From positions 14,153 through 78,152 of the forward strand of contig JALEOL010000024.1 of the NCBI GenBank assembly GCA_022766785.1: 64,000 bases of DNA, written 5' to 3'. The translations under genes were made by a program, and so were the position numbers. Under the pieces are notes generated by a model that made no database searches, was not told where the DNA came from, and saw only the letters and a program-made list of their open reading frames with translations. The DNA is from Oscillospiraceae bacterium (GTDB lineage Bacteria; Bacillota; Clostridia; Oscillospirales; Ruminococcaceae). Positions 3,683-27,367 of this stretch are shown here, piece after piece (the first letter of the stretch is position 1; the number at the start of each line of letters is the position of its first letter).

Positions 3683-3744
3683 ATTGTCAAGGGACGAAGC
3701 TTCACCCGACATTCCGAACAACACCATTCAAGGAGGTAACTTTT

Positions 3745-4026: not shown

Positions 4027-4952
4027 TGAAAATACTTGAACGGATTAACCCCACAAACACAGGCTCGTACAACCGCCCCATTGCTCACGCTTTGGGGCTT
4101 GGGGCGGCGGTGGTTTACGCTGCGCTGATTAGCAAGCAGGTCTATTACGAACAGCACGATATGCTTGACGAGGAAGGCTTCTTCTACTCCAAGATTGCAG
4201 ATTTGGAGGAAAGCACAACGCTTTCCAAACGCCAACAGAGCGCCGCAATAAAAGTGCTGATTGACGCAGGAATTATCGAGTGCAAGAGGTGCGGAATGCC
4301 CGCTAAACGGTATTTTCGTGTGCTTGACGATACAGAGCCGCTTGACGATTTGCTCAAACAGGGCGAAGCGGTTATGAACGAGCTGAACCCGATAGCCCAG
4401 AAGTGCGAAAATGTAACTTCTTGTAGTGACAAAATCGTCCAACAAGAAGTGACAAATTGTAACATCAAGTTGGCACAAAACGTGCCTTATACTATAAATC
4501 CTAATATAATAAAATCTAAAGAGAATAATCCTAATCAATCAATCCAAAGCGGCGATAGGATTGATATGATGGATAATTCAGCCGAGATTGTTTCTGCTGA
4601 TGAACGCAGCAATTACCTTGAGCTTATCCGTGAGAATATCGAGTATGACTGCTTTGAAGAAAAGGAGCAGGAGAAGGTTGACGAGCTGGTGGAGGTAATG
4701 GTTGATTTAGTGTGTTCAAGCCAAAACACAGTTCGGGTTCACGGCGAGGACTTGCCACACGAGGTGGTTAAGAGCCGCTTCCTGAAACTCAATCACGAGC
4801 ATATCGAATATGTGCTGCTTGCCTTGAAACGGAACACAAGCGACGTGAAGAACATCAGAGCTTATCTGATAACGACGCTTTACAACGCTCCGACAACAAA
4901 GGACGCCTACTACACAACGCTTGTTAATCACGATATGTATGGGAGTGCGTGA
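4026..4952 (+). CDS. Replication initiator-like protein (N-terminal wHTH, C-terminal DUF6017-like)
   Basis: ATG overlaps the xis stop (TAATG). C-terminus VVKSRFLKLNHEHIEYV...NIRAYLITTLYNAPTT is typical of Firmicute IME/ICE RepA-type proteins. Confidence 0.75.
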   Translation: MKILERINPTNTGSYNRPIAHALGLGAAVVYAALISKQVYYEQHDMLDEEGFFYSKIADLEESTTLSKRQQSAAIKVLIDAGIIECKRCGMPAKRYFRVLDDTEPLDDLLKQGEAVMNELNPIAQKCENVTSCSDKIVQQEVTNCNIKLAQNVPYTINPNIIKSKENNPNQSIQSGDRIDMMDNSAEIVSADERSNYLELIRENIEYDCFEEKEQEKVDELVEVMVDLVCSSQNTVRVHGEDLPHEVVKSRFLKLNHEHIEYVLLALKRNTSDVKNIRAYLITTLYNAPTTKDAYYTTLVNHDMYGSA

Positions 4953-5313
4953 CTGCTCGGAGAAATTTTTCTTTCAGATTTGAAAAGAAAAATTTTGTCG
5001 GGCTTGGAGAGTTTTCACTCCTGTCCGCAGAGGTCGAGTGAGAGAGGTTTTGAGATTTACCTCAATTCCGAGGTCAGTCATTTGGGAGCGATTTTCGCTT
5101 TTACCTCGTTTTACGAGGTGGCTGGTTGAGAGGGGTTTGAGAATTTATCTCAAATCTCGGAGTGGTAAGCGAAAAGAGGTTTGGGGAATTTTCCCCAACT
5201 CAATGTGATAATGACGGGCGGAGCTTGTCACTATCACTATTGAGTATAGCAACAACGACTAAAATCGAAAAATATGCTCAATTTCTTAAAACGGTTTAAT
5301 CGGGCATTTTGAA

Positions 5314-5462
5314 GATAAATTGAAAAACTGTATTTTTTGTCTTGCTGCCGATGATGAGATAAATTTTAAAACTGAACTTTTTAACTTGCTGCCGTTTTTA
5401 AGATAAATTCAAAAAATGATTTTTCGGAACAGCGGCAGCTGACAGGATAAATTCAAAAACAG
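5314..5462 (+). repeat. Four iteron-like repeats with exact 44-bp periodicity
   Basis: GATAAATT(G/T/C)AAAAA-type motif starts at 5314, 5358, 5402 and 5446; CTTGCTGCCG at 5341 and 5385. Confidence 0.8.
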
Positions 5463-5481
5463 ACGAAGGGAGATATATACA

Positions 5482-7200
5482 ATGAGCGTGAAAAAGTCAA
5501 ACGGGCTGTCGGTTTCGTTTCGTGTTGACAGCGGTTACCTCGACCACAACAACCGAGTTATCACCGCTCACAATGTTGATGTTTCAAGAACGGCAGATAA
5601 CATTACCTACACAAAAATCGACTTGCGTGATTTCTATCATCAGGTCTTTGGCGAGGCGATTATGGAATACAATCTGAAGCAAGACCGCCCAGACCGAGAA
5701 ATTCACGATTACTACGAGCAAGTCAAAAAATCGAAAAAGGTAAAGCTGTTCTATGAAGTGGTTGTGCAGTTTGGGGATTCGCACGACTGCGGACTTGATA
5801 CAGAGAATTGGGAAACTGCAAAAACTATGCTTGACGAATATGTGCAGGATTTTGAAAAACGCAATCCTAACCTTAAAGTGTTTAATGCCGTAATGCACCT
5901 TGACGAGAGTACGCCGCACCTTCATATTGACTTCGTTCCCGTGGCTCACAAGGGACGGCGAGGTATGTCGCTGAAAAACTCAATGAGCGGGGCGCTTCGG
6001 GAACAGGGGTTTTCCTCGTCCAACAAAATGCAGAACGAGTGGACGGCTTGGTCTGAAAGTGAGCGTTCGGTTATGGAGCAGATTTTGCTGAAACACGGTT
6101 TGCGGCGAGAGGATAAAAATGTTCATCGGCAGCATATGTCCGTTGAGGATTACAAGAAGGCTGCCCTTAAAGCGGAGCAAATCAACAAATTAAACGCTCA
6201 CATAAACGAGCTGAAAAAGAAACCTGTTGAGGAGCTAACCCCAGATGAAGTTACTCTTATCAAAAACCAGAATGATTTTATGCGTGGGGAAATCATAAAT
6301 CGTAACGAAACTATTTCCGAATTGAGCAAACAAGTTAATGCAAAATTTGTAACTGTAAACATTTACAGCCCCGACAAGCTACAATACATAGCGGACGGGT
6401 TGGCTCGTGCGAAAATACCTTGCGTTGCCGAAAGCAACACGCTTTATGTTCCCGATTACGCTTTGAGGACGGCAAAAGCGATTGCGTCCCACTACAAGCC
6501 CGACGAGAAAGCGCCGACTATCCGTGAGCAGATTAAGCTGGACATTGACAGGCTGGTGTATAGGACGGAAACCCTTGACGATTTGCTCTATCGGTTGCAG
6601 GAGTGTGGTTATGAAGTCAAAGAAGGCAAGTACATATCGGTGAAGCACCCCTCGGCTGAACGCTTCGTGCGGCTGAAAAACCTCGGTGATGAATACTTGC
6701 CGAAAAACCTTGAACAGCGCATAGCTGAAAAGGATATGTTTACCGACCGTGTGAGATATAAAGCGCAGAACGCAAGCCCGATTGAGAAGCGGTTTCATAT
6801 CACCATTCTTAACATTACAACCGCTGTCAAGCAGTTTCAGCTTGAACCGAAGAAAACAGATAAACGCAGATACTATTTCTTCCAAAATGACGCTCGGATA
6901 AACTATCTCTCGGAACAGCTTGCTACAATCGGCGAGTTTGGCTTGACCTCCCGTGACAGCATTTACGCAAAGGCGCAGGAGTTACAGCGCACCATTCATC
7001 AAATTCGCTCACAGGGCGACAATCCCGAAGAACAGGAAAAGGCGCTGAAACGCATAAACACGCTGATTAAAGTGTATGAGGAGATTGTGGAAGGCAACTA
7101 CATTGACAATCTCATAAAGGCACAACAGGAAGAAAAGCAGGCTGCGGAGCAGAACGCAAATGCACGCAAAAATACAACAAGAAATGCACAGAAAAGATAA
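5482..7200 (+). CDS. Relaxase/mobilization protein (MobV/Mob_Pre N-terminus)
   Basis: YLDHNNR and AVMHLDESTPHLHIDFVP MobV motifs; coiled-coil C-terminus. Confidence 0.85.
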   Translation: MSVKKSNGLSVSFRVDSGYLDHNNRVITAHNVDVSRTADNITYTKIDLRDFYHQVFGEAIMEYNLKQDRPDREIHDYYEQVKKSKKVKLFYEVVVQFGDSHDCGLDTENWETAKTMLDEYVQDFEKRNPNLKVFNAVMHLDESTPHLHIDFVPVAHKGRRGMSLKNSMSGALREQGFSSSNKMQNEWTAWSESERSVMEQILLKHGLRREDKNVHRQHMSVEDYKKAALKAEQINKLNAHINELKKKPVEELTPDEVTLIKNQNDFMRGEIINRNETISELSKQVNAKFVTVNIYSPDKLQYIADGLARAKIPCVAESNTLYVPDYALRTAKAIASHYKPDEKAPTIREQIKLDIDRLVYRTETLDDLLYRLQECGYEVKEGKYISVKHPSAERFVRLKNLGDEYLPKNLEQRIAEKDMFTDRVRYKAQNASPIEKRFHITILNITTAVKQFQLEPKKTDKRRYYFFQNDARINYLSEQLATIGEFGLTSRDSIYAKAQELQRTIHQIRSQGDNPEEQEKALKRINTLIKVYEEIVEGNYIDNLIKAQQEEKQAAEQNANARKNTTRNAQKR

Positions 7201-7291
7201 CATACCTCTTGACAAATCACACTTTAAAGTGGTAAAATAGAGTTGCAGAGAGTATGTCATAAATCTACAATATCGAAAGGAGCGATATTTT

Positions 7292-8476
7292 ATGGCAACA
7301 ATCAGAAAGCGCGGCGGCACGTATCAGATACGGGTGTCGCTGGGCTACGATAAAAACGGCAATCATAAGGAGCAGGCGATGACTTGGAAGCCCGACGAGG
7401 GTATGTCGGAGCGGCAAATTCAAAAGGAGCTGAACCGACAAGCGGTGATGTTCGAGGAAGCCTGTATGCACGGCTATAAGGCGAAAGCGGTCAAGTTTGA
7501 GGAACTGGCGGATGAGTGGTTCTCTGACTACGCAAGGCTCAATCTCCGAAGCACCACATACGAGCGAATGAAACAGCTTACCCACCGCATTTATCCTGCT
7601 ATCGGGCATTTGCGGATTGATAAGATTTCACCCCGACAGCTGCAAGGCTTTGTAAATTCCCTTGCCAAAGAGGGTGCGAACGAGAAAACGGGTAAGCCGC
7701 TTGCACCTAAAACTATACGGCATAATTTGAGTTTCATTTCAGATGTGTTCAGCTATGCTGTGAAAATGGGCGTAGTTTCGGAAAATCCCTGCACGAAGGT
7801 CACGATACCAAAAGGCGAGGTCAAGGAGAAGCAGATTTACTCGCAGGAGGAGCTGGAACTGCTTCTGAACAAACTCATCGACGAACCGACAAAGTACCGT
7901 GCGTTCTTTTACCTGATTTCCTACACGGGCTTGCGGCGCTCGGAAATGCTTGGTCTTGAATGGAAAGACATTGACTTTGAGCATAATGTTATTTCCGTTC
8001 GCAGGACGAGCAACTACACAGCAGAGCGCGGCACTTACACGGACACTACGAAAACCAAGCGTTCGCAGAGGGCACTGAAAATCTCGCCCTTTATTATGAA
8101 TATCCTGAAACAGCTGAAAGAGGAGCAGGACGAGGAAGCGCTGCGGTTGGGCAGCAAGTGGGTTGACACCGACCGCCTTTTCGTGAAATGGAACGGCGAA
8201 GAAATGAACAATCAGACGCCTTACGGCTGGTTAAAGGAGTTTTGCGAGAAGAACGATTTGCCGTTCTATGGCTTGCATAGTTTCAGGCATTTTGCGGCGA
8301 GCGCTTTGATTTCGGCTGGTCTTGATGTTACAACAGTTTCGGGAGCATTAGGGCACTCGAATTACGTCACGACTTTGAACGTATATTGTCATCAGTTCCA
8401 GAACGCACAGGCGAGAATTGCAGAAGCTATGGACGGGGCGTTCGGGTTCCTTGACGGTCGCAAGCTGGAGGCTTAA
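7292..8476 (+). CDS. int: Tyrosine recombinase/integrase
   Basis: TGLRRSE and HSFRH...LGH...VY catalytic residues; N-terminal arm-binding and SAM-like domains; own promoter TTGACA(7209)-18-TAAAAT. Confidence 0.95.
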   Translation: MATIRKRGGTYQIRVSLGYDKNGNHKEQAMTWKPDEGMSERQIQKELNRQAVMFEEACMHGYKAKAVKFEELADEWFSDYARLNLRSTTYERMKQLTHRIYPAIGHLRIDKISPRQLQGFVNSLAKEGANEKTGKPLAPKTIRHNLSFISDVFSYAVKMGVVSENPCTKVTIPKGEVKEKQIYSQEELELLLNKLIDEPTKYRAFFYLISYTGLRRSEMLGLEWKDIDFEHNVISVRRTSNYTAERGTYTDTTKTKRSQRALKISPFIMNILKQLKEEQDEEALRLGSKWVDTDRLFVKWNGEEMNNQTPYGWLKEFCEKNDLPFYGLHSFRHFAASALISAGLDVTTVSGALGHSNYVTTLNVYCHQFQNAQARIAEAMDGAFGFLDGRKLEA

Positions 8477-8589
8477 AGCGTGTATCTCGGAAAAATACGC
8501 AATAGCGGACAAACAGCGGACAAGCCGAAATTTTGGCAAAAAGAAAAGCCCACAAAAGGCTTCATTAAGCCAAATGTGAGCTATGCTTA

Positions 8590-8664
8590 TGGTGACCCGT
8601 ACGGGAATCGAACCCATGATTCCGCCGTGAAAGGGCGATGTCTTAACCTCTTGACCAACGGGCC
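8590..8664 (-). tRNA. tRNA-Glu (anticodon TTC)
   Basis: Reverse complement GGCCCGTTGGTCAAGAGGTTAAGACATCGCCCTTTCACGGCGGAATCATGGGTTCGATTCCCGTACGGGTCACCA folds as a cloverleaf with encoded CCA. Confidence 0.97.
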
Positions 8665-8701
8665 TAATAAAAAAACCGCACAACGAGGTATGCGGTTTTG
8701 A

Positions 8702-8778
8702 TGGTAGCGGTAATCGGATTCGAACCAATGACACCCTGGGTATGAACCAAGTGCTCTAGCCAACTGAGCTATACCGCC
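8702..8778 (-). tRNA. tRNA with anticodon CAT (elongator Met type)
   Basis: Reverse complement GGCGGTATAGCTCAGTTGGCTAGAGCACTTGGTTCATACCCAGGGTGTCATTGGTTCGAATCCGATTACCGCTACCA. Confidence 0.93.
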
Positions 8779-8814
8779 ATATTAAATCGTTAATCAACTC
8801 TCAACGACTTAATT

Positions 8815-8843
8815 ATTATATCACAAGGCAGCGGATTTGTCAA
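8815..8843 (-). promoter_or_regulatory. sigmaA promoter of the tRNA pair
   Basis: TTGACA-17-TATAAT with extended TG. Confidence 0.85.
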
Positions 8844-8891
8844 GCACTTTTTTAAATTTTTTTCGGTTTTTTTGCAGAAAGCGCTCCTGCG

Positions 8892-9452
8892 TCAATCCGC
8901 GCGGTATTCCGCGATGTAGGGCAGGTTCCTGTATTTCTCGCCGCAGTCCAGTCCGTAGCCTACCACGAAGTAATCCGGGATCGTGAACAGCGACATATCC
9001 GCCTTGAAGTCCACCACCCGTCTTGAGGGCTTGTCCAGCAGAGTGATCACCTCAAGCGAAAGCGGACGGCGCTCCCTCAGCTTCTCAACAACGGCGGCAA
9101 GCGTTCTGCCGGTGTCGATTATGTCCTCCGCGATCACCACATGATATCCGCTGATGTCCTGGCTGAGATCCTTTGTTATCGTCACCTCGCCGCTGGACAC
9201 GGTGCCGTCATAATAGCTGCGCGCACACATGAACCCCACCTCGCACGGGATCGTCACCGCACGGCAGAGATCCGCCATGAATATAAACGCGCCGTTAAGT
9301 ATGCTCACCAGCAGCAGCGGCTTGCCGGCGTATTTCTCGCTGATCATTCTGCCAGCTTCGGCAATGCGCTCCTTTATTTCCGCTTCGGTGAATATCACAC
9401 GGTTGATATGCTTTTCCAGTTCCTTGTCCACGGTCTTTCCTCCTGCTGCCAT
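8892..9452 (-). CDS. hpt: Hypoxanthine phosphoribosyltransferase
   Basis: PRPP-binding VVIAEDIIDTGRTL; FVVGYGLD...YRNLPYI. Confidence 0.95.
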   Translation of the reverse strand: MAAGGKTVDKELEKHINRVIFTEAEIKERIAEAGRMISEKYAGKPLLLVSILNGAFIFMADLCRAVTIPCEVGFMCARSYYDGTVSSGEVTITKDLSQDISGYHVVIAEDIIDTGRTLAAVVEKLRERRPLSLEVITLLDKPSRRVVDFKADMSLFTIPDYFVVGYGLDCGEKYRNLPYIAEYRAD

Positions 9453-13217: not shown

Positions 13218-13652
13218 TCACCTTATCTCAACATTGTATTCCCTCAGCCAGAACTCCGTCTGGAGCATGTATGCGTATATCTGCGGCAGCGTCATCAGCT
13301 GACCGTACCAGTTTTTGGTGAAGCTCGCTCCGTTCGTGTCCAGCAGCTCCCGGAGCTTGTCGGCGCTCACCAGCTCGACTAACCGGCAGTCGTCCCTGTC
13401 CAGAACGCTGCGCAGCCTTTCGCTCAGCAGTCTGAGATATTCCGGGTCGTAGGTCTTTGGGTAAGGGCTTTTCTTCCGCCAGAGCACGTCGTCCGGCAGT
13501 ATTCCGGTCATGGCATGGCGCACAAGCCCCTTTTCCCTGCCGTTGTACGCCTTCATCTCCCAGGGCACGTTATAGGCGTACTCCACCACGCGGTAGTCGC
13601 AGAACGGCACGCGAACCTCCAGCCCGTGCGCCATGCTCATTCTGTCCTTGCG
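13218..13652 (-). CDS. asnB: 3' segment (144 codons + stop) of split glutamine-hydrolysing asparagine synthetase (AsnO/AsnB type)
   Basis: RKDRMSMAHGLEVRVPFCDYRVVEY...REKGLVRHAM...LWRKKSPYP; no proper start/RBS; begins immediately after the TGAC core. Confidence 0.92.
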   Translation of the reverse strand, partial: RKDRMSMAHGLEVRVPFCDYRVVEYAYNVPWEMKAYNGREKGLVRHAMTGILPDDVLWRKKSPYPKTYDPEYLRLLSERLRSVLDRDDCRLVELVSADKLRELLDTNGASFTKNWYGQLMTLPQIYAYMLQTEFWLREYNVEIR

Positions 13653-13681
13653 GTCACGCCGCGTCACATGGGTAAAACAGT

Positions 13682-15199
13682 TCACACAACAAAACTGACC
13701 TCTACCGGGGAGGCTTTGTCCCAGACCGTGACCCGCGCTATCAGCAGCTTTGCTATCGCTTTCCGGTCGGCAAGAGAAAGATCCTCCCAGTCCTCCAGCA
13801 GCGGCAGGATACGGTCGGCGGCGCTCTCCTGCTTTGCTTCGGCAGAATACCGCTGTATATCGGCGTTAAGCTCGCTCAGCTGACGTTCAAGGACTGCCAT
13901 TTTCTCGTTCAGCCTTGTCCGGAGCAGCGCGTTTTCAGCCTGCGAAAAGCTCTCCACAATGCCGCTTATCTCCTCCTCCAGCTTTATTCTCCGGGCTTTG
14001 AGGGAGTTCAGCCCGGTCTCCTCTGCGGCTGACCTGTCCGCGGAATGATAGCGCAGCCCCTTTGCACGCTCCAGCAGAGCAGCACTAACGGCGTTCTCGA
14101 TCTCGTCAAAGGTAATGCCGCTCTTTCCGCCGCAGCAGACGTGGTGCTTCCTGCCGCCGCAGTACAAATAACGCTTCCCGTTGTGCTGACCGCTGACGAC
14201 ATTAACCGCATAGCCGCAGAAGCCGCATTTTATCAGCCCGGACAGCCAGCTGTGCGTTCCCCTGCCGCTGTTTCTGAGCGCCTTGTTCTCGGATAGGCGG
14301 CGCTGCACCCTCAGCCAGTCGCCGGCGGAAATGAAACCCTCGTGCCGGTTGAGCTGAATGTGTTCGCCCTCAAGGTCGCGGAATTTGCTCCTCGTCTTTC
14401 CCTGACGATGACCGTAGACCGTGCAGCCGCACACTCCTGCGAACTCGCTCACATCGTTGTGGAGCACCGCGCCCCGGCTCACGAAATAGGAATACACGTC
14501 CGCGTCCGCCCGGACATACACAGGGTTCGCCAGTATCCTGCTTATGCGGACGCTGCTGAACCGGATATCCTGATCTGTCCCGTGTTCCGGGGAATTCAGC
14601 TCCGCCGCTATCTCGCCGATAGATCTGCCGGACAAATAGCTGCGGTAAATGTACTTCACGATATGACTGGTGCTGACATCTTCTTCAAGCCTGCTGGTCT
14701 TTTTGCCGTCGATCTGGTCTGCGATCTTCCGGTACCCAAGCGGCGCTGCGCCCGCCATGAAAAATCCCCTCTCCGCCCTGCTGTAAAAATTGTCGGTCAC
14801 ACGCTTCTGGATAGTCTCGCGCTCCAGCTGCGCAAAGATAAGTATCACCCGGAGCATGGCTTCGCCCGTAATGCTTGTGGTGTCAAAATCCTCGGTCGCG
14901 GACACGAAATCCACATGGTGCCGCTTCAGTTCCCGATAGGTCAGCTCAAAATCCAGCACCGAACGGCTCATGCGGTCGATCCTGTAGACGATCACCTTGC
15001 TCAGCCTGCCGGCTCTGACGTCGGACATCAGGCGCTGAAAGTCCGGGCGGTTGGTGTTCTTTCCGCTGTAGCCCCTGTCGCTGTACACCATTACGTCGGT
15101 CTCGCCTTTCCGGAGCTTTGCGCGGCATTCCTGCTCCTGGGTCTCAACGCTGATACTGTCCTTTTTGTCCACCGACTGTCTGCAATATATCCCTGTCAC
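13682..15199 (-). CDS. Large serine recombinase (resolvase + recombinase + zinc-ribbon domains; SpoIVCA/CisA-like)
   Basis: Catalytic IYCRQS, YSDRGYSGKNTNRPDFQRL, RIDRMSR, GLIKCGFCG...YLYC. Start placed at GTG 15199 after RBS GAGGTG. Confidence 0.95.
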   Translation of the reverse strand: MTGIYCRQSVDKKDSISVETQEQECRAKLRKGETDVMVYSDRGYSGKNTNRPDFQRLMSDVRAGRLSKVIVYRIDRMSRSVLDFELTYRELKRHHVDFVSATEDFDTTSITGEAMLRVILIFAQLERETIQKRVTDNFYSRAERGFFMAGAAPLGYRKIADQIDGKKTSRLEEDVSTSHIVKYIYRSYLSGRSIGEIAAELNSPEHGTDQDIRFSSVRISRILANPVYVRADADVYSYFVSRGAVLHNDVSEFAGVCGCTVYGHRQGKTRSKFRDLEGEHIQLNRHEGFISAGDWLRVQRRLSENKALRNSGRGTHSWLSGLIKCGFCGYAVNVVSGQHNGKRYLYCGGRKHHVCCGGKSGITFDEIENAVSAALLERAKGLRYHSADRSAAEETGLNSLKARRIKLEEEISGIVESFSQAENALLRTRLNEKMAVLERQLSELNADIQRYSAEAKQESAADRILPLLEDWEDLSLADRKAIAKLLIARVTVWDKASPVEVSFVV

Positions 15200-15252
15200 A
15201 TTATCCCACCTCAAAGACAATGGAGCGCGAAAATATCACGCCCCGTTTTCCG

Positions 15253-15384
15253 CTATGCGCTCTTCTGCGGCTTCGCCTGCTTCTTCTGAGCCGCCGCTAA
15301 TTTCAGCAGTCCGTCCGTTATGACACCTATCCTCTGGCTGCGTTCCTCCTCGCTCAGCTGTGGGTATACCAGCTTTACCTGCAT
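15253..15384 (-). CDS. Unannotated 43-aa protein upstream of the recombinase; candidate recombination directionality factor
   Basis: RBS GAGGTGA 5 nt before ATG; MQVKLVYPQLSEEERSQRIGVITDGLLKLAAAQKKQAKPQKSA*; below the ORF-track size cutoff. Confidence 0.65.
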   Translation of the reverse strand: MQVKLVYPQLSEEERSQRIGVITDGLLKLAAAQKKQAKPQKSA

Positions 15385-15433
15385 TCGCCTCACCTCATCA
15401 CAAGTAATGCTGTACTGTTCGTCCGTTATTCAC

Positions 15434-15466
15434 AAAAAAGCAGGCGGAGCGACTCGCCCCACCTGC
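15434..15466 (-). terminator. Intrinsic terminator separating the cargo from the small ORF/recombinase unit
   Basis: GCAGGTGGGGCGAGTCGCTCCGCCTGC-TTTTTT on the minus strand. Confidence 0.75.
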
Positions 15467-15472
15467 ACTTTC

Positions 15473-17240
15473 TTATTCAATAACGAACTGCTTTACCTCG
15501 TCGCAAAGCTGAACCGCCTGAGTATTAAGCTCCTCGCAGGAAGCAGCGATCTCCTGCGCGGCTGCGCTGGTCTGCTGCACAACGTCGGATATCTGCGAAA
15601 TGCCGTTGGTGATCTGCCCGATCGACTTTGACTGATACTCCGCAGCGGCGGAAATATCGCCGATCATCTGCTTTGTTCTGCCGAATATCTCCACCACAGA
15701 TCCCAGCGACTGAGCGTTCTTTTCCGCGATCTCAGACCCCTCCGACACCGCCGATACCGCCGCCGTGATAAGCTGCGACGTTGTGCGGACGGCTTCTGCG
15801 GATTTTGCAGCAAGGTTTCTCACCTCGTCGGCTACCACTGCAAAGCCCTTTCCTGCCTCCCCTGCCCTTGCCGCCTCTATCGCGGCGTTGAGAGCAAGGA
15901 TATTCGTCTGGAATGCGATATCGTCTATCGTCTTGTTTATCCGTTCGATCTCGCCGGACTGCTTAGGGCAATACCGCATAATTATTGTCGTGCGATTGCG
16001 CCGCAGATTTTTCGTTAGATTGTACAAATTGAGTGCAGACAGGCTGACGCCTTTCAAGCGAAATTTGTGCAAGATAACGGAAAAGATGCAAGCAAGCGTG
16101 CGGCAAAGGCGACAGCCGGTAATTGTGCGGTATTGCCTTAGAGATGTTCTCCATTGCGGACATCATCTGATCCATGTACCTGTGCTGTTCGTCAAGCACC
16201 GCCGAGCCGTTGTCCGCAAGCTCCAGAGCGCCGCGCGACTTGTCCGCGGTCTCGTTCACCTTCGCAGATATCTCGCCCAGCGATGAGGAAAGCTCCTCGA
16301 TAGCCTCCGCCTGACGCACAGTTCCTGCCGCCAGAACGTCCGAGCCTTTTGCGGAAGCCGAAGCGTCGGCGTTTACGTTATCTGAGGTGACGTTGATCTT
16401 TGAGATGATCTGCTTCATCTGGTCAGAAATAAGCTCCACCGACCGGTTCAGCTCAACAAAATCGCCGCTGTACACCGCCTCGGTGTGTTCCGTGAAGTTC
16501 CCGGCAGCCATCGAACCCAGCACCCGGGACAGATCCTCAATGTACCCGTGCAGAGTATCGCGCATGTTCTCCACCTGCGAAAGCAGCTCGCCTACCTCGT
16601 CCTTTCCGTGACGGACATCGGTTATCTGACAGCTGAGGTTGCCCTTGTTCATCTCCTTTGCCAGTTCTCCGATATGAACCACCGGGGTGAGTATCCTGCG
16701 TCTGATGATCCTGAGACACACGATCACCGCTGCGGCAGTTATGACAATAGTAAGACCGACTCCCACAATGCTCATGACAAGCATTTTCTGGTCAAGCATA
16801 CCGTTGATAACGCCGGTCTGGTAGCCGCCGAAATACGCGCCGATGATATTGCCGTTTTTATCCGTCATCGGCTCGTAGCATACCACATAATCGCTTCCGC
16901 CTATGGTCGTTCTGCCCAGATAGGTCTGACCCTTTTGCAATACACGTTCGGCGATCTCTGCGGACATTTCCGAGCCTTCGATACGTTTTCCGTCCTCGCC
17001 CTCAATGGTGGTGGCGTACCTTATGTTGTCCCTGAATATGGTGAACTGACCGCCGGTTTTTTCGCGGACAGGATCAAGATGATCATATGCGCGCAGGTCG
17101 TATCCTGCTATGAACGACCCGGCTCCGTCGATCTTTGTCAGATAGCAGTAGTACAATCTGTCGCTGTCGTAATTGAGACCGTCTGTAACGGAAGAAAGGC
17201 TGGCGTTCTGCGGGAAATTCTCCGTCGCACATATCTGCAC
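15473..17240 (-). pseudogene. Methyl-accepting chemotaxis protein (Cache-TM-HAMP-MCP signal), interrupted by a MITE and apparently 5'-truncated
   Basis: [37 protein letters not shown] in the downstream ORF; Cache/HAMP in the upstream ORF; removing 15967-16141 restores ...[12 protein letters not shown]...; first TM helix missing. Confidence 0.88.
15967..16137. mobile_element. 171-bp MITE with 18-bp terminal inverted repeats and 4-bp target duplication TTAG
   Basis: TIRs GGCAATACCGCATAATTA / TAATTGTGCGGTATTGCC (17/18 match); TTAG at 15963-15966 and 16138-16141. Confidence 0.9.
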
Positions 17241-17301
17241 GCCAGTTGTGTTATTTTGTTTGATCTGCGCTATTGCTGATACACATGGTCTGCCCCGGGG
17301 G

Positions 17302-18681
17302 TCAACCCTCGCAGGTATCCGTGATGTTGCTTATCCAGATACCCTTTCTTATCAGCACATAACCGATGACAAGCTTCAGTATATCCGCCGCCTGAATAAT
17401 GGTGTATATCACAAAAACAGACAGCGAACTGAACCGGCAGAGCAAAAACGCCGCCGGAACAACGATCACCCAGGTGAACACGCTGTCGAACAGAAAGGTC
17501 ACAAAGGTCTTTCCGCCGGAACGCAAGGTGAAATACAGCGCGTTGAGATAGCCCTGCACCGGGAAAAACAGTGCGGTTATCACAATAAACAGCGCAGCGT
17601 TCTTCCGTATTTCGTCCGTTGTGTCATAGAAATCCGGGAACACGCCCGAGACGCTGACAAGTATCACGGTCAGGATAATGCAGATACCGCCGGTGAACCT
17701 CATCAGCGCAAAGGAGTCCTTTTTCGCCTGTTCATACTGCTTCGCGCCGAGGGTCTGACCTATCAGGATACCCACCGCGTTGCCCAGGGCGATGAACACG
17801 ACGTTCAGCAGGTTGCACAGCGCGTTAGAAATATTAATTCCGGGAACGATATCAAGCCCCAGAATGGAATAATTCTGCGTCAGCGCTGCAATGCCGCCTG
17901 CCCACAGGAACTCGTTAAAGAATATCGGCAGTCCCTTTCTGATAATGACCGAGGCGGTTTTCACCGGCACCAGCATAGTCCTGTACGCTCCCTGCAAAAA
18001 GGCATGACGCTTCTTTCTGACGAACGCCCAGACTATCACCACCAGCATTTCCACCACCCTAGCAATGACGGTAGCAAGCGCTGCGCCTTTCACGCCCATT
18101 TCGGGGAAACCGAGCTTTCCGAAGATCAGCAGATAGTTGAACAGAATATCCGTCACAACAGAGAACACGCCGCCGATCATCGGTTTAATGCTGTCGCCGG
18201 TTTCCCTCAGCGTGCTTGCAAAGATCTGCGTCACGGCAAACGGCAGCAGTCCCCACAGCATTATCCCGAGGTATTCCCCGGCAAGCTGCATTGTGAGCAC
18301 GGGATCGACAGTTTCGCTCTCCCCCTGAAGATACAGCCCGATAAGCTTATCGCCGCCCAACGTGAAAGCCAGCAGCCCCAGCGCAAGGCATACCGCGCAG
18401 ACATAGTGCTTTATCCGGAAAGTGTTCCTGACCCCCTCGATATCGCCTTTTCCGTAATACTGCGCGGAATAGATACCGGGCCCGGACAGCCCTCCGAACA
18501 CCGCCAGATTGAATACGAATATCAGCTGACCCACGATAGAGACCGCGGATATCGCCTCAGTGCCGAGATTTCCCACCATGATATTGTCGATAAGCCCTAC
18601 CATGTTGGTTATCCCGTTTTGTATCATCATGGGCACCGCAAGCGCCAGCGCCCGTTTGTATATGCTGTTGTTCTGATACAT
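17302..18681 (-). CDS. MATE family efflux transporter
   Basis: LAVPMMIQNGITNMVGLIDNIMVGNLG; FGKLGFPEMGVKGAALATVIAR; about 12 hydrophobic segments; start at MYQNN after GGAGAGGGAG. Confidence 0.93.
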   Translation of the reverse strand: MYQNNSIYKRALALAVPMMIQNGITNMVGLIDNIMVGNLGTEAISAVSIVGQLIFVFNLAVFGGLSGPGIYSAQYYGKGDIEGVRNTFRIKHYVCAVCLALGLLAFTLGGDKLIGLYLQGESETVDPVLTMQLAGEYLGIMLWGLLPFAVTQIFASTLRETGDSIKPMIGGVFSVVTDILFNYLLIFGKLGFPEMGVKGAALATVIARVVEMLVVIVWAFVRKKRHAFLQGAYRTMLVPVKTASVIIRKGLPIFFNEFLWAGGIAALTQNYSILGLDIVPGINISNALCNLLNVVFIALGNAVGILIGQTLGAKQYEQAKKDSFALMRFTGGICIILTVILVSVSGVFPDFYDTTDEIRKNAALFIVITALFFPVQGYLNALYFTLRSGGKTFVTFLFDSVFTWVIVVPAAFLLCRFSSLSVFVIYTIIQAADILKLVIGYVLIRKGIWISNITDTCEG

Positions 18682-18726
18682 GTTCTCCCTCTCCTGTTTC
18701 ACGTTTTTTAGAAATGCCCTTTAGTA

Positions 18727-20259
18727 TTACTCTCGCCAATACTCCGAGCCATAGCCCGTCCTGCCCATCAGCTTCAGATCTATCATTTCCCTGCGGATAA
18801 TCGCATAGTCAGAAAAGGTAATATTCTGCATGATGATCTCATTGACCTCTTTTTCGGTGTATATCCTGCCTTTCTCAAAGCATTCCGCTATTCTTCCGAG
18901 GGCAACGATCCTCAGCGGTCTCTTTCGCGGATACTGCGTCAGGCGGCCGTCCCTGTCGTAAAATACAGACGCTTTCTTCCGGTAAGCGATATTTCTGCTA
19001 AGCTCGCACAGCTTTTCATTCAGTTCGCCGATATGCTTTTCGAACCACACCAGCAGCCCCGACGCCAGGTCAGCCTGTTCCAAATAAATATGCCTGTTAT
19101 TTGAAATGGAATCGTAATACTGCCCGTAAAAATTGCATACAGCCAGGAAGTAATAGAACAGCTTCCCTGCGTTTTCTATGTCATAGGCGTTCAGCGTGCC
19201 GATCTCTATATAGTCGTCGATATAGCGTATCAGAGCCTCTATATTTATCTCTCCGCGCCCCGTCTCCGGCGCCATAAAGACATAGGATCGGACGATCTCC
19301 CAGATATACGGGTGCCGGCAGACGCAGGTCCAGTCAACGATCCCGTTCACCTTATCGTCAAGCCATACGAGCTGTGAGATCGTGTAATCGCCGTGGGTGT
19401 TGCCACATGTGAATTTGTCTGTATCGAACTCATACGAGGGCATAGACCCGACAATTCTCATATTGGAACGTATCGCTGCTGCGATATCCTTATCGCCGTT
19501 ATCCTCCGCCTGCCTGAGAGTCTGAAGATAACTTTCCTGTATGTATTGAGGCTTTCTGTGTTCGAAAAAACCGCTGCCTATACCGGTGGGAATATTCTCC
19601 ATATCCCTCATTGCCGCGTGTATCTCTGCAAGCAATACCGCCGACGCTTTCTGCAGACCCACGGGCGCTTCATTGCAGCCATAGGTCACGCCCTCATAGA
19701 ACTGCTGGACGGTAAATCTTCTCCCGTTCTCATCGGTGGAGAGCATTCTGCCATGCTTATCGGGAATAAATCTGCATGCCGGAATGCCTTTCTTTAAGAG
19801 CTGACTGCACACGCGTATCTCCGTTTCCGGGTGATTCATCGCATTATCGGAGGGGTACTTCACAACGTACTTTGCGCCGTTTGCAGTTACGAAATAGGTA
19901 AGCCCCCCAGCGCCGTTCCCGGAGGTCTCCATGGTCTCTGTCTCAATGTCGTAGAGCTTGTATATACGCATTCGCAGCTGCTCGAATTCCAGCTGTCTGA
20001 CCAGTTCCAGCCGCGACCTGTCGATAATGTTCATAAGCTCCAGAATTGGTATGGATTCTCCTGCCAGAAGTTCGTTCACGGTTATACCCAGGATCCGGCA
20101 CAAAGGCTCCATATATACGACCTCCGGCAGCCCGTTGCCGCACTCCCACTTTGATACCGTCTTTTCGCTTATTCCCAGTCTTGCCGCTATGTCTTTCTGC
20201 AAAAGACCGCGTTCTTTTCTGCGCATGGCGATGAATTTTCCTGTCTTTATCTGATCCAT
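18727..20259 (-). CDS. XRE HTH + APH/choline-kinase-like phosphotransferase + DUF2087-like wHTH fusion
   Basis: N-term IAARLGISEKTVSKWECGNGLP; HGDY...GIVDW kinase motifs; C-term YTEKEVNEII...DYAIIRREMID...GSEYWR. Confidence 0.8.
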   Translation of the reverse strand: MDQIKTGKFIAMRRKERGLLQKDIAARLGISEKTVSKWECGNGLPEVVYMEPLCRILGITVNELLAGESIPILELMNIIDRSRLELVRQLEFEQLRMRIYKLYDIETETMETSGNGAGGLTYFVTANGAKYVVKYPSDNAMNHPETEIRVCSQLLKKGIPACRFIPDKHGRMLSTDENGRRFTVQQFYEGVTYGCNEAPVGLQKASAVLLAEIHAAMRDMENIPTGIGSGFFEHRKPQYIQESYLQTLRQAEDNGDKDIAAAIRSNMRIVGSMPSYEFDTDKFTCGNTHGDYTISQLVWLDDKVNGIVDWTCVCRHPYIWEIVRSYVFMAPETGRGEINIEALIRYIDDYIEIGTLNAYDIENAGKLFYYFLAVCNFYGQYYDSISNNRHIYLEQADLASGLLVWFEKHIGELNEKLCELSRNIAYRKKASVFYDRDGRLTQYPRKRPLRIVALGRIAECFEKGRIYTEKEVNEIIMQNITFSDYAIIRREMIDLKLMGRTGYGSEYWRE

Positions 20260-20491
20260 TGTTTTTCTCCATTCACAATTTTTTCATGGAGTGATTATAT
20301 CATTTTTAATTATAGATTGGAACCCACGCTCCGTAGGATCCGATACCTGATCACTGCTATGTCTTTTTTATTATACTACATTTCCCCGTTTTTTTCAACT
20401 GGTTTTCATCGCGGAACAGCAAACGCCCCGGCTATGGTATGCCAGACATATAAGGTGTGATCCGGTCAGCGGCGCATAATTAATTTCTCTA

Positions 20492-20520
20492 TTGACTAAC
20501 AGCACAATTTAGTATATAAT
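20492..20520 (+). promoter_or_regulatory. sigmaA promoter of the HD-GYP gene
   Basis: TTGACT-17-TATAAT. Confidence 0.7.
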
Positions 20521-20580
20521 AGTATACAGAGCGATCCCCACCCTATAACAAAAGGCACCTCTATAATAAACGGTGATAAT

Positions 20581-23505
20581 ATGAAAAAAACCATTACTAT
20601 ACTTCTTTCTCTCGTGATAATGTTCGCCGCGTCGGTAAATGCCTTTGCGGAACACACCATGTCCTATGTCGGAAGTATCTTCAACGACCGCAACGGGCTT
20701 CCCACAGGTGAAGCAAACGCAGTCGTACAGACCCCCGACGGCTACATCTGGATAGGAAGCTACGCCGGGCTTATCCGCTACGACGGCACCGTGTTCCGCA
20801 ATTTCAGCGAGGAGGGCGCGCTCCAGACCGCCACGGTGCGTTCGCTGTTCGTGGATTCCTCCGGGCGGCTGTGGGTCGGCTCCAACGACATGGGCGTGTT
20901 CTGCATGGAGAACGACGTTTTCGTTCAGCCGGAGGGTCAGCCTGCGGACAGCTTCTCCACGATACGCAGCTTCACCGAGGGAGAAAACGGCGATATCTAT
21001 GTGTCAAGCTCCTCGGGGCTTGCAAGAGTTTCCGGCGGCGTGATGTCCATTTACGACGCGCCCGAGCTTTTCGGGCACACTGTATACTCCACCGCAGTCG
21101 ATAAATTCGGACGGGTGTGGTGCTCCACCAACTCCGGCTGCTGCGTTATCCTGCCGGACGGCACTATTGAGGGCACCCCGGACAGCAGCCTTATCTTCCG
21201 GGACGGGGAGAATATCTACAGCCTTGCCTCGGGAAAGGACGGAGCTGTCTGGTTCGGCTCTGACAGCAATATTCTTGCAATGGCGGAGTTCACAAGTAAG
21301 GCACTCTCCCCTGACGGGCTGAAAGTTACCTATTACAGCACGGAAAACGTCTATACCCACAACAGCATTGGCGTGCTCCCGGACGGCGGCGTGACAGTCC
21401 ACGGGCTGCGCGGCTTCGGGATACTCAGAAACGGCGGGTTCCTCGGCTTCGGAGAGGACGAGGGCGCGGCTTCGGTGGAGGGTTCCTGCGTTGACTATGA
21501 GGGCAATATCTGGCTCGCTTCCTCCACAAACGGCGTCGTGAAATTCACCGAGGGCTGCTATTCCACCCCGGACAGCAGCGCCGGGCTTTCCGGCAAATCC
21601 CTGAACACGATAGTTGGACAGGGCGGCTATTTCTTCATGGGAACGGACAACGGGCTGCTTATCTGCACGGAAAACTGGAAGCCGGTCTCAAACGACCTGA
21701 CCGCCGGTCTTGACGGAATAAGAGTGCGCCATATCATCGCAGACAGCAAGGGATATGTCTGGATAGCGTCCTATTCAGATACCCCGGTTATACGCGTTGA
21801 CCCTGCGAACTGGGAAACGGTATGCTACACCCAGGCTGACGGGCTTGCGGACAGGAACGCGCGTACTCTGCTGGAAATGTCCGACGGCTCGATAGCTGTG
21901 GGAATGCAGAACGGGCTGAGCATTATCACCCCCGCAGGAAACATCACCGGCTACAACGACCTCGCATATCCTGCTATACTCTGCATGACCGAGACCAGCA
22001 CCGGCGCTCTGCTTGCCGGCAGCGACGGCGGCGGTATCTACGAGATAGACGGCGGAAATATCACCGTGCACAGCTACTCCGAGGGACTGGACAACGGCAT
22101 TATACTGCGCATTATCGAGGACTCGAAACCGGGCTGCCTGTTCGTCAGCACCAGCAGCGGCATGTTTTATTATAACGGCACATCATTTCGAAAATTGTCG
22201 AAACTGAACAAAAGCCCCGGCAACATATTTGATATGTACCTTGTGGGCGACAGCCTTTACCTGCTGCAGAACAGCGGAATACTGACGATCCCCCGGGAGG
22301 ACGTTATTGCTGACAACGGCGCTCCCTCGCTCAGCTACGGGTTTGAGCACGGGCTTTCCGGCTCGCTGTATGCAAATACCTGGCACTGGCTCTCGCCGGA
22401 CGGGAAGCTGTACCTCGCCACAAGCAGCGGCGTGAGCATTTTCGGGTTCCACCAGCCCGAGAGCATTCTGCCAAAGGGCGTGGTGAACAGCATAACCGTG
22501 GACGGCACGGTGACAGAGCACCCACAGTCGCTGGAGATAAAAAAGGGCGCGCACCGTATCACGATCGATTTCGCGGCGCTCTCATACACCGGAACGACGC
22601 GCCTTGCGATAGCCTACAAGCTGGACGGCTTCGACAGCGAGGAGACGGTCATCACAGGCGAAAAGAAAGCGAACATCAGCTACACCAACCTGCCCGGCGG
22701 CGAATACACCTTCACCATGCGGATATTCCTCACCGACCACCCGGAGCAGAGCGAGACCTACACCGTCCCGATAAAAAAGGAAAGAGCCTTTTCCGAAAAG
22801 CCGGCGTTCGTGGCGCTGCTGATATTCTGCGGCATTGCCTTTGCGGTGGGAATTACCAGCCTTATTCTTTTCGCAAGGATAAGGGTGATGAAGCGCCGGC
22901 AGAAGATGTATAAGGAGATCATCGACCAGTCGCTGAAAACCTTTGCCGGGACGATAGACGCCAAGGACAAGTACACCAACGGACATTCCCTGCGCGTGGC
23001 GAAATACTCCCAGGAGCTGGCGCGCCGCATGAACATGAGCAAGGAGGAGCAGGAGCGGATATACTACATCGCCATGCTCCACGACATCGGAAAGATCGGT
23101 ATCCCCGACAACATTCTGAACAAGCCCGGAAAGCTCACCGATGAGGAACGGCAGATAATCCAGAAGCACCCTGCGATAGGCGCAGATATACTAAAGAACT
23201 ACACGGCGATCGAGGGCATTGCGGACGGTGCGAGATACCACCACGAAAGGATCGACGGAAAGGGCTACTGCGAGGGGCTTTCCGGGGACGATATTCCGCT
23301 GATCGCCCGTATAATCGGCGTTGCGGACACCTATGACGCTATGTCCAGCAGGCGCTGCTACCGTGACTGCCTGTCCTCGGACGTTATCATTGAAGAGCTG
23401 AAGCGCGTGGCAGGCAGCCAGCTCGACCGGGATATAGTTCCGCACATGCTGGATATGATAAAGGACGGCACAGCACCGATAATTCTCCCCGAGGACAAGG
23501 CATAA
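20581..23505 (+). CDS. Membrane sensor HD-GYP phosphodiesterase: signal peptide, beta-propeller (Reg_prop) repeats, YYY domain, TM, HD-GYP
   Basis: DGYIWIGS/GRLWVGS repeats; SYTNLPGGEYTF; DKYTNGHSLRV, LHDIGKIG, HHERIDGKGY, VADTYDAM. Confidence 0.9.
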   Translation: MKKTITILLSLVIMFAASVNAFAEHTMSYVGSIFNDRNGLPTGEANAVVQTPDGYIWIGSYAGLIRYDGTVFRNFSEEGALQTATVRSLFVDSSGRLWVGSNDMGVFCMENDVFVQPEGQPADSFSTIRSFTEGENGDIYVSSSSGLARVSGGVMSIYDAPELFGHTVYSTAVDKFGRVWCSTNSGCCVILPDGTIEGTPDSSLIFRDGENIYSLASGKDGAVWFGSDSNILAMAEFTSKALSPDGLKVTYYSTENVYTHNSIGVLPDGGVTVHGLRGFGILRNGGFLGFGEDEGAASVEGSCVDYEGNIWLASSTNGVVKFTEGCYSTPDSSAGLSGKSLNTIVGQGGYFFMGTDNGLLICTENWKPVSNDLTAGLDGIRVRHIIADSKGYVWIASYSDTPVIRVDPANWETVCYTQADGLADRNARTLLEMSDGSIAVGMQNGLSIITPAGNITGYNDLAYPAILCMTETSTGALLAGSDGGGIYEIDGGNITVHSYSEGLDNGIILRIIEDSKPGCLFVSTSSGMFYYNGTSFRKLSKLNKSPGNIFDMYLVGDSLYLLQNSGILTIPREDVIADNGAPSLSYGFEHGLSGSLYANTWHWLSPDGKLYLATSSGVSIFGFHQPESILPKGVVNSITVDGTVTEHPQSLEIKKGAHRITIDFAALSYTGTTRLAIAYKLDGFDSEETVITGEKKANISYTNLPGGEYTFTMRIFLTDHPEQSETYTVPIKKERAFSEKPAFVALLIFCGIAFAVGITSLILFARIRVMKRRQKMYKEIIDQSLKTFAGTIDAKDKYTNGHSLRVAKYSQELARRMNMSKEEQERIYYIAMLHDIGKIGIPDNILNKPGKLTDEERQIIQKHPAIGADILKNYTAIEGIADGARYHHERIDGKGYCEGLSGDDIPLIARIIGVADTYDAMSSRRCYRDCLSSDVIIEELKRVAGSQLDRDIVPHMLDMIKDGTAPIILPEDKA

Positions 23506-23541
23506 GCTGCGGTTTACGGGCAATAAACGGTGACGAATAAG

Positions 23542-23579
23542 CGAGCGACACTCCGAAAAAGGCGTGCCGCTCGTTTTTT
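23542..23579 (+). terminator. Terminator of the HD-GYP gene just inside the element end
   Basis: CGAGCGACAC...GTGCCGCTCG-TTTTTT. Confidence 0.65.
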
Positions 23580-23643
23580 CGTATTCACCGGGATAAAGCG
23601 TACATTCTCGGTTTAAAAGGGATTTTACCTTTGTATCACTATC

Positions 23644-25035
23644 GTCAAGCAGCGTTGCCATGAAATAGTCCATATTCATCATGAACATCTCCCTCATGCG
23701 GCGCTCCCCGGGGCTGTCGCTGTCGAGATACTCCGTCCGGGAAATGCACTTGCTGCAGCTTCTACGAACGTATTCCTCCGCCTCTATTCCGGACATCGGG
23801 CGCTTCATCAGCTCCGCCCTTTCGGGAACGGCAGTAGACCATGGGAAACCGTCATAGAACAGTAATTCCCTGCGGTGATACCACGGATATCCCCCAAGCA
23901 CCTCGTCCGCGCATTCCCCGGAGAGCGCCACCGGGAAGCGCTTTCGTATCTCCCTGCAGAACAGGTACAGCGAGCTGTCCACGTCCGCCATTCCAGGGAG
24001 ATCCCGCGCCCGGGTGGAGTCCTCCAGCGCGTCCGCAAGCGCCGGGGTTTCCAGTATCACGTTGGTGTGCTGCGACCCGATGTGCTCCGCCATGCGCACT
24101 ATCCAGGGGGCGTCCTCGTCCGGCTGGAAGCTGCTGGCGCGGAAATTCCTGTGGTTGTCCCTGTAGTCTATTGACCAGGTGGAAAGCTGCCTGCCCTGCT
24201 TTCGGAACTCCTCCGCAGCGACCGCCGAGATCACGCTGCTGTCCAGTCCCCCGGACAGAAAACAGCACAGCGGCACGTCGCTCACCAGCTGCCGCTTTAT
24301 TGCGTCGGTGAGAAGCTCCCTGATATGCGCCGAGGTCTCCTCAAAGCTCTCCGTGTGCGGCTTTGCGTGGACCTTCCAGTATTCCGTCAGGGTAAATCCC
24401 TCATCGGTCAGCACCGCGTAATTTGCCGGGGGTATCTCGCTGATATCGCGGAAAACGCCGCTGCCCACCCTCTTAGCCGGGCCTATCAGCATGATGTCCG
24501 CAATGCCGCTCTCGTCTATCACCGGTCTCACCTGGGGGTGCTTCAGCAGCGCCTTTATCTCGCTGGCGAACACTATGCCGTCCCGGGTATGGCTGTAGAA
24601 CAGCGGCTTTACGCCTATCCTGTCCCTTGCAAGGAAAAGCCTGCGCCTGCGGCTGTCCCATACCGCAAACGCAAATATACCGTTGAACTGCTTTACGCAC
24701 TCGTCGCCGTATTCCGCGTAGGCTCTCAGCACCACCTCGGTATCCGAATGCCCGGAAAACTCCACGCCGCGCCCCATAAGCCCAAGCCGAAGCTCCTGCG
24801 TATTGTAAAGCTCCCCGTTGTACACCAGCGTGTAACCGCCATAACTCATGGGCTGCGCACCGTTATCCGGGTCAATGACCGCAAGACGGCGATGTACAAG
24901 ATATGCGTGATCGTCAACATACACCCCCGAGGCGTCAGGTCCCCGGGGAGCTATAGCCTCGCTCATCTGCGTCATCACCGCGCTCATCTGCCGCATGTTT
25001 TCATGGTATCCTATCTGACCTGCAATACCGCACAT
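23644..25035 (-). CDS. asnB: 5' segment (464 codons) of split asparagine synthetase (AsnO/AsnB type)
   Basis: N-terminal MCGIAG (Ntn Cys), RGPD, YNGELYN, ARDRIGVKPL, LSGGLDSS, SGECADE; homology ends at FMATLLD; RBS AAAGGAG. Confidence 0.93.
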
Positions 25036-25066
25036 GGAAATATCTCCTTTCACTGAGTTCTTCATC

Positions 25067-25095
25067 ATAATATGCGTATCTGGGGTTTTGTGTGA
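25067..25095 (-). promoter_or_regulatory. Putative mother-cell sporulation (sigmaK/sigmaE-type) promoter of the split gene
   Basis: TCACA-16 nt-CATATTAT about 30 nt upstream of the start; no sigmaA consensus seen there. Confidence 0.65.
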
Positions 25096-27327: not shown

Positions 27328-27367
27328 GTCCCTTTTCCTCCTGTTGATTGTGTTTACTTTCAGAAAC

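Follow-up and report, generated by a model that had tools for sequence, protein, structure and literature searches.

A conserved 43-residue protein encoded upstream of a large serine recombinase as the probable directionality factor of an asparagine synthase-splitting element in an Oscillospiraceae bacterium

The stretch of DNA described here (the window) comprises 64,000 nucleotides of an Oscillospiraceae bacterium (assembly GCA_022766785.1, contig JALEOL010000024.1, positions 14,153 to 78,152). It contains an asparagine synthase gene of the asnB/asnO type that is split by an inserted element, and this element carries the gene of a large serine recombinase (LSR) and, just upstream of it, a small open reading frame (ORF) that had been proposed in a preliminary description to encode the recombination directionality factor (RDF) of the recombinase. 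The features of the small ORF, the recombinase and the split gene, all on the minus strand, are as follows.

15253 to 15384, minus strand: 43-residue small protein gene, candidate RDF (strand reading and ORF listing)
15390 to 15396, minus strand: ribosome-binding site GAGGTGA, 5 nt 5' of the ATG of the small ORF
15402 to 15433, minus strand: conserved promoter-like block (alignment of orthologous loci)
15434 to 15466, minus strand: intrinsic terminator of the upstream MCP (chemotaxis-receptor) gene (terminator scan)
15222 to 15244, minus strand: weak hairpin in the gap between the small ORF and the recombinase, with 9 pairs and a poor T tail (centroid fold)
13682 to 15199, minus strand: LSR of 505 residues from GTG 15199 (PF00239, PF07508 and PF13408; alignments; AlphaFold2 model)
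13653 to 13656, minus strand: attR crossover core TGAC, approximately 26 nt past the recombinase stop (comparison of attL, attR and intact attB)
23644 to 23647, minus strand: attL crossover core TGAC (same comparison)
23644 to 25035, minus strand: 5' part of the asnB/asnO-type asparagine synthase (GATase_7; positions 1-227 of the Asn_synthase profile)
13218 to 13656, minus strand: 3' part of the asparagine synthase (positions 219-353 of the Asn_synthase profile)

The small ORF starts at ATG 15384-15382, stops at TAG 15255-15253 and has a product of 43 residues, MQVKLVYPQLSEEERSQRIGVITDGLLKLAAAQKKQAKPQKSA; an alternative GTG at 15393 would extend it to 46 residues. The recombinase frame is listed as 13682-15220, and its start was moved to GTG 15199 by alignment to relatives, which leaves a gap of 53 nt after the small ORF; the recombinase has its own ribosome-binding site. 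All of the parts given in the preliminary description, namely the ORF, the GAGGTGA site, the terminator, the 53-nt gap and the orientation shared with the recombinase, are present in the minus-strand reading and the ORF listing. The stem of the terminator (15466-15440) has 12 pairs, 9 of which are G-C, and a loop of 3 nt followed by TTTTTT; it was found in a scan that gave 11 terminator-like sites in 4 kb against 3.0 expected. As judged from this predicted structure, the terminator insulates the small-ORF unit from the cargo of the element, as had been proposed. The 221-nt leader together with the ORF folds no better than shuffled sequences (z = -0.26), and Rfam gave no match within 15100-15600 at E <= 1. 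Contigs of two RNA-library runs (X16 and X20) cover 14851-15034 and 15052-15202 of the recombinase and do not cover 15244-15617, an absence that contigs cannot establish.

The 43-residue peptide has no family match in Pfam, NCBIfam or PHROG, where only subthreshold noise was obtained for it and likewise for 14 family members, and no usable match in the ESM Atlas. Its model takes the shape of an extended, strand-like N terminus (residues 1 to 11) followed by one amphipathic helix (residues 12 to 37), and the peptide has a basic tail and no hydrophobic segment. A classical excisionase fold (the winged helix of Xis or a ribbon-helix-helix) was considered and rejected, as no such match was found in Pfam, NCBIfam or PHROG and the model is a single helix.

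The recombinase consists of a catalytic (Resolvase) domain, a recombinase domain (DBD1), a zinc ribbon (DBD2) and a coiled-coil hairpin at residues 391 to 454, and the hairpin is seen in the AlphaFold2 model (pLDDT = 80.6). The DBD2 and the coiled coil are the parts that the RDF contact proposed below would need. The ends of the element were located by comparison of attL (...CTTGAC/GATAG...) and attR (...CGTGAC/CGCAAGG...) with attB (...CTTGAC/CGCAAGG...), the last of which was taken from intact orthologues in the genus; the slash follows the TGAC core. The DNA between the two cores is 9,991 bp long, and the small ORF lies on the same element as its LSR, inside these 9.99 kb. When the two parts of the asparagine synthase, whose likely start is ATG 25035 (MCGIAG...), are joined at the core, the sequence reads ...ATLLD-RKDRMSMA..., as in intact orthologues. 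The TGAC core is common to attL, attR and attB; therefore, precise excision of the 9,991 bp would restore the reading frame. The split gene is the sole Asn_synthase match in its own genome (85.75% complete). No contig joining 13656 to 23647, as in an excised form, was found in four runs, which is uninformative because these are contigs only.

The recombinase was searched against 100 other genomes of the genus, and orthologues of 52 to 74% identity are present in 14 of them. In genomes that also gave the corresponding 3' part of asnB, this part follows the recombinase, 30 to 50 nt away in 10 genomes. In three further genomes with 73 to 74% orthologues (G450, G453 and G300), the distance from the recombinase stop to the asnB 3' part is 5.7 kb, 670 nt and 270 nt, respectively, and these longer gaps may reflect extra DNA or nested insertions at attR. 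One of the 14 orthologues begins at a contig end, which leaves 13 with readable upstream DNA, and a co-oriented ORF of 40 to 69 residues is located directly upstream of the recombinase in all 13. The spacing between the two genes is -4 nt (an ATGA overlap) in five, -1 to +2 nt in five and 100 to 122 nt in three. The alignment of the peptides is free of gaps over residues 1 to 33, follows the pattern M-x-V-x4-(P/S)-x-L-(S/T)-x2-(E/D)-(R/K)-x6-(I/V)-T-x2-(M/L)-L-x-I and has an invariant Thr23. The third codon position is the most changeable in all 28 within-group pairs, and dN/dS ranges from 0.07 to 0.83 in the 23 unsaturated pairs. In a word-indexed protein search, all four candidates matched at 82 to 98% identity, one of them with an in-frame insertion of one codon, and a HMMER scan of 1.84 billion representatives gave 21 clusters, of which 19 are proteins of 33 to 68 residues with the same pattern. 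The conservation of position, frame and amino acid sequence in related elements indicates that the ORF is more than a chance frame; on these alignments, it is a protein-coding gene under purifying selection that is tied to the recombinase. The conservation that the preliminary description had called for, and the co-occurrence with homologous recombinases, are thus both borne out, as the small ORF always accompanies the recombinase.

The region between the small ORF and the recombinase varies among the orthologues. At the position of the weak hairpin of the window, the G439 and G436 orthologues have a full terminator-like hairpin, which at locus L056 has 14 pairs followed by a T run. In G456, the corresponding gap contains a perfect sigma-70 promoter, TTGACA-17-TATAAT. 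The promoter in G456 and the terminator-like hairpin after the small ORF in G439 suggest that the small gene can have its own regulation beside a constitutively expressed recombinase, like that of the skin element of Clostridioides difficile. The mean pairwise identity is 0.41 for the peptide and for the coiled-coil region alike, and a mirror-tree comparison of the peptide with the recombinase domains gave correlations for all of them (Spearman 0.76 to 0.86) and no discrimination.

The promoter-like block consists of GTGAATAA (15433-15426), GGACGAACA (15424-15416) and CATTACTT (15409-15402), with 16 nt between GTGAATAA and CATTACTT. In 11 of the 14 orthologous loci, (G/T)AATA, GGACGAACA and CATTAC or AATACGAT recur at a fixed distance from the start codon, in surroundings that cannot be aligned, and 7 of the 14 loci have an exact GGACGAAC. 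At the ribosome-binding site, TGAGGTGA is retained in eight loci and is replaced by AAGGAG-type sites in the other six. The footprint of the block supports the view that it is a functional cis element and probably marks a transcription start. The promoter of the host spoIIID gene, TCATATA-N14-CATAAGAT, is a textbook case of the sigma-E type; the block agrees with it in the ATA at -35 and the CATnAnnT at -10, but the spacer of the block is 1 to 2 nt longer. The motif of the preliminary description, which was described as loosely similar to sporulation-sigma promoters, is present and conserved in 11 of the 14 loci, but its identity as a sporulation-sigma promoter stays weak. The conserved GGAC(G/A)AAC may resemble a SpoIIID box (Bacillus subtilis consensus RRACAR) and is kept only as a lead. 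It matches 6 of the 9 positions of the C. difficile SpoIIID consensus KRTAACARK as given in PMC5025042.

The host genome has matches to SpoIIID, SpoIVA and Spo0A_C above the Pfam cutoffs, and by this gene content the host is a spore former. The region upstream of asnB has only a weak sigma-E-like -35 element. In B. subtilis, asnO is described as a target of sigma-E and SpoIIID (PMC517825).

Similar small ORFs are found beyond the orthologues, as recombinases of the same clade at 34 to 42% identity are likewise preceded by a small ORF in the same orientation. These ORFs were compared by means of three profiles, A4 for the clade of the window, A7 for relatives of 38 to 40% identity in the genus and A1 for relatives in the family. 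Comparison with hhalign gave E = 1.7e-4 over 36 columns for A4 against A1 (the upstream ORFs of recombinases of 34 to 38% identity), E = 1e-5 for A7 against A1 and E = 8e-4 for A4 against A7; the matches are weak but always in the same register. When the approximately 97 six-frame ORFs of each locus were ranked with the A1 hidden Markov model, the syntenic ORF came first in 12 of 15 A7 loci and in 10 of 14 loci of the window's clade, the window among them. A further 80 loci were taken from named Clostridia (Oscillospiraceae, Lachnospiraceae, Ruminococcus, Ruminiclostridium, Sporobacter and others), 76 of which have at least 200 nt of upstream DNA. A family match in the forward frames upstream of the recombinase was obtained in 51 of these 76 loci of different species, and in none of the 76 on the opposite strand, which served as the control. 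The small ORF of the window has the same arrangement, being co-oriented and ending within approximately 120 nt of an LSR start of the AIY(A/C)RQSVDKKDSISIE type. It thus appears to be a distant member, by remote homology, of a family of proteins of 35 to 70 residues encoded upstream of a Clostridial LSR clade. Proteins of the A1 type carry the public names "hypothetical protein" or, spuriously, "exonuclease I," and no Pfam or NCBIfam model covers them. A C-terminal K-(S/T/N)-A is shared by many otherwise divergent members whose ORFs stop before the recombinase start (window 15253-15264; L056, L066, L068, L078, L080 and others). Two contigs titled Escherichia coli and Muribaculum (L159 and L115, respectively) contain the Clostridial recombinase module and are probably mis-binned.

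Two members of this family have already been predicted to be directionality factors. Shin et al. (PMC12286644, Supplementary Table 1) applied AlphaFold2-multimer as a pulldown over all ORFs of each element, and the RDFs that they predict for the LSRs Cd04 and uCb4 are small upstream ORFs identical in sequence to those of our loci L017 and L032. Most of the RDFs predicted in that work are described as adding a β-strand to DBD2 (PMC12286644), and the strand-plus-helix model of the window peptide fits this description. Together with the proven RDFs of matching size or position described below and the separate regulation in some orthologues, this prediction makes it probable, in our view, that the 43-residue ORF encodes the RDF of the adjacent LSR. 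Every part of this proposal of the preliminary description that can be addressed from sequence came out in its favor, i.e., the conservation, the travel with the recombinase, the terminator, the promoter motif, the homologues picked by AlphaFold2-multimer and the architecture shared with Skr and GirX.

In the mechanism that we propose, the recombinase by itself would be limited to integration (attP x attB). The peptide would bind the recombinase at the junction of the zinc ribbon (DBD2) and the coiled coil and re-aim the coiled coil, so that synapsis of attL with attR would become possible. Excision of the 9.99-kb element at the TGAC core would follow and would restore the asparagine synthase frame (...LLD/RKD...). 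Both the small ORF and the recombinase would be expressed from the conserved promoter-like block just downstream of the terminator; this block may well be a sporulation promoter of the mother-cell type in this spore-forming host. The translation of the ORF in vivo, the binding of the peptide to the recombinase, its effect on directionality and the timing are all inferred.

Several points weigh against the assignment as an RDF. The predictions for Cd04 and uCb4 are computational only; neither LSR is among the nine integrases with bench data in PMC12286644, where 4 of the 11 bench-tested hits of the AlphaFold2-multimer method proved to be false positives. The homology of the clade to the family of predicted RDFs is remote (hhalign probability of 49% for A4 against A1), and reverse searches with the A4 and A7 models place the syntenic ORF first in only 3 to 4 of 14 to 18 loci. 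As for the timing, the -10 element CATTACTT and the 16-nt spacer match the sigma-E pattern only loosely, and no regulon emerged when the whole genome was searched for the block; GGACGAACN{5,9}ATTAC has two sites in the genome, and the second, which overlaps a glycosyltransferase gene at its ribosome-binding site and start, looks fortuitous. Finally, constant coexpression of an RDF with its integrase would hinder integration, which is awkward for the family members that are located on mobilizable elements (with a Mob relaxase upstream). Such coexpression would be natural for a domesticated element that is only excised, but the mobilizable relatives need explaining.

The alternative that survives best, which we consider unlikely, is that the peptide is a dedicated partner of the recombinase with another job, such as a subunit or chaperone for both directions, a stabilizer or an autoregulator of the operon. 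The strict synteny and the frequent ATGA coupling imply production at a ratio of approximately 1:1, which suits a constitutive subunit better than a switch, and the members on mobilizable elements must integrate as well. The equal rates of evolution of the peptide and the coiled coil would be expected of any tight partner. On the other hand, the proven small LSR partners of the same position or size in the accounts cited below, Skr and GirX, are RDFs, and the LSRs characterized so far are stated to integrate without a helper (PMC12286644). The uncoupled transcription units in G456 and G439 also favor separate regulation of the small gene.

It is less probable still, and in our judgment quite improbable, that the ORF is a leader, i.e., an upstream ORF that controls translation of the recombinase and whose peptide does nothing in trans. 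In favor of this reading, 10 of the 13 orthologues have a small-ORF stop codon that overlaps or abuts the recombinase start. However, the amino acid sequence is under purifying selection, the recombinase has a ribosome-binding site of its own, and the gap of 53 to 122 nt in the window and three orthologues, with a hairpin, terminator or promoter in between, indicates that coupling is not obligatory. Last, an unrelated function (cargo, a toxin-antitoxin-like role or a membrane peptide) has only a slight chance of being correct, even though no family, fold or name is attached to the peptide, since the ORF goes with the recombinase rather than with the cargo, which differs or is deleted between strains while the unit stays, the family is found upstream of recombinases in 51 of the 76 loci, and the peptide lacks a hydrophobic segment; a chance ORF is excluded by the conservation.

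Apart from the unit of the small ORF and the recombinase, the element consists of nonphage cargo (15473 to 23505 overall), assigned by domain search as follows.

15473 to 17240, minus strand: frameshifted MCP
17302 to 18702, minus strand: MATE transporter
18727 to 20259, minus strand: HTH-APH-DUF2087 protein
20581 to 23505, plus strand: propeller/Y_Y_Y/HD-GYP protein

The MCP gene is read in two overlapping frames, and an extra T is present after 16003 in contigs of other samples. In two DNA runs of other samples, 15691-17302 is replaced by 25 nt, so that most of the MCP gene is lost and the segment of the recombinase and the small ORF is kept. This deletion beside the retained unit suggests that the cargo is decaying while the recombinase unit is maintained.

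A type III glutamine synthetase gene (25234-27387) is located directly upstream of the split asparagine synthase (23191-25068 and 13218-13685). Another genome of the genus has a second, unrelated element in the same asparagine synthase gene (L084; G488:C16:7000-14400, 4823-7181), which encodes a serine recombinase of 525 residues. The site of this second element is approximately 95 codons further upstream, at ...GECADE/IFGGYPWY..., and there is no small ORF of the family ahead of its recombinase; a divergent ORF of 79 residues lies nearby. Approximately 10 genomes of the genus have open frames of 236 to 243 residues that are tied to the second element type. Elsewhere in the window, positions 1 to 9000 have a low GC content (38 to 48%) and encode a Mob_Pre relaxase, a DUF6017 protein and a tyrosine integrase, which represent a separate mobilizable island.

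A joint reading of these observations, which we put forward tentatively as a possibility that falls somewhat short of being probable, is that the peptide is a branch of one profile-recognizable superfamily of RDFs of 35 to 70 residues, encoded upstream of, and often translationally fused to, one large Clostridial integrase clade, and that domestication has occurred repeatedly, with an asnO-type gene interrupted at two codons by two unrelated elements that are excised in the mother cell. Within the genus, 14 of 100 species have the element type of the window, and approximately 10 more have the second type at the other codon. If the joint reading is true, the RDFs of hundreds of these integrases could be read from position and profile. 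Large serine integrases are leading tools for the insertion of large DNA cargo, and their reaction is reversible only with the cognate RDF; RDFs of 40 to 70 residues would provide many compact, orthogonal integrase-RDF pairs together with a simple rule for finding them. A superfamily of this kind would run contrary to a stated view, as RDFs are said in PMC12286644 to lack sequence conservation and synteny and hence to be hard to find. The observations would also add an amino acid biosynthesis gene of the asnB/asnO type to the genes that are split by developmentally excised elements, in spore formers of the gut. A literature search on intervening elements gave no paper that joins them with "asparagine synth."

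Among known RDFs, Skr of the B. subtilis skin element is similar to the small ORF of the window in that it is a small, co-oriented ORF directly upstream of an LSR gene on a gene-splitting element of a spore former. As described in PMC6957869, Skr has 64 residues, was previously unannotated, is encoded directly upstream of and overlapping spoIVCA, depends on sigma-E and is needed for excision. The skr gene overlaps spoIVCA by 101 nt in another frame, whereas the gap in the window is 53 nt and relatives show the ATGA overlap. The target of the skin element is sigK instead of an asnB-type gene, and its recombinase belongs to another clade; the likeness drawn here is one of position and small size. 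GirX, the RDF of GirC from the gerE-intervening gin element of Bacillus cereus, is comparable in its size, in having no known motif and in lying on a nonprophage element; it is described as a protein of 42 residues with no motif, unannotated in some genomes, that enables attL x attR and blocks attP x attB (PMC5595907). The girX gene differs in lying within the BCE4620-4625 region of a Bacillus host. CD1234 of the C. difficile skin element has 72 residues and, according to PMC5025042, no database similarity, and its transcription start is 14 bp before the start codon. Excision is timed by its mother-cell promoter, which depends on sigma-E and SpoIIID, and the recombinase is expressed constitutively, which also appears to hold for the G456 orthologue. 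In contrast to the small ORF of the window, CD1234 is not adjacent to the recombinase gene (CD1231) and is acidic (pI 5.5), while the tail of the window peptide is basic.

The predicted RDFs of Cd04 (A4Y97_RS04300; 71 residues) and uCb4 (KH198_02355; 49 residues) belong to recombinases of the same clade, with 35 to 37% identity to the LSR of the window, and resemble the window peptide in the position directly upstream, the strand-plus-helix layout and a remote homology. They differ in an N-terminal extension, a helix that ends in ...LYEVFxKY and their location on mobilizable elements, and they are predictions only. The structural model for the proposed mechanism is SprB, the small RDF of the SPbeta integrase SprA, which is described as binding DBD2 near the coiled coil and repositioning the coiled coil (PMC11722253 and PMC12286644). 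Unlike the small ORF of the window, sprB is phage borne and far from its integrase gene, and the match of the window LSR to SprA (E = 1.5e-8) is confined to the catalytic and DBD1 region. The small protein is thus most probably of a known kind, represented by Skr, GirX and CD1234, to which the window and its relatives add a widespread, syntenic family of miniproteins and an undescribed family of asnB-splitting elements.
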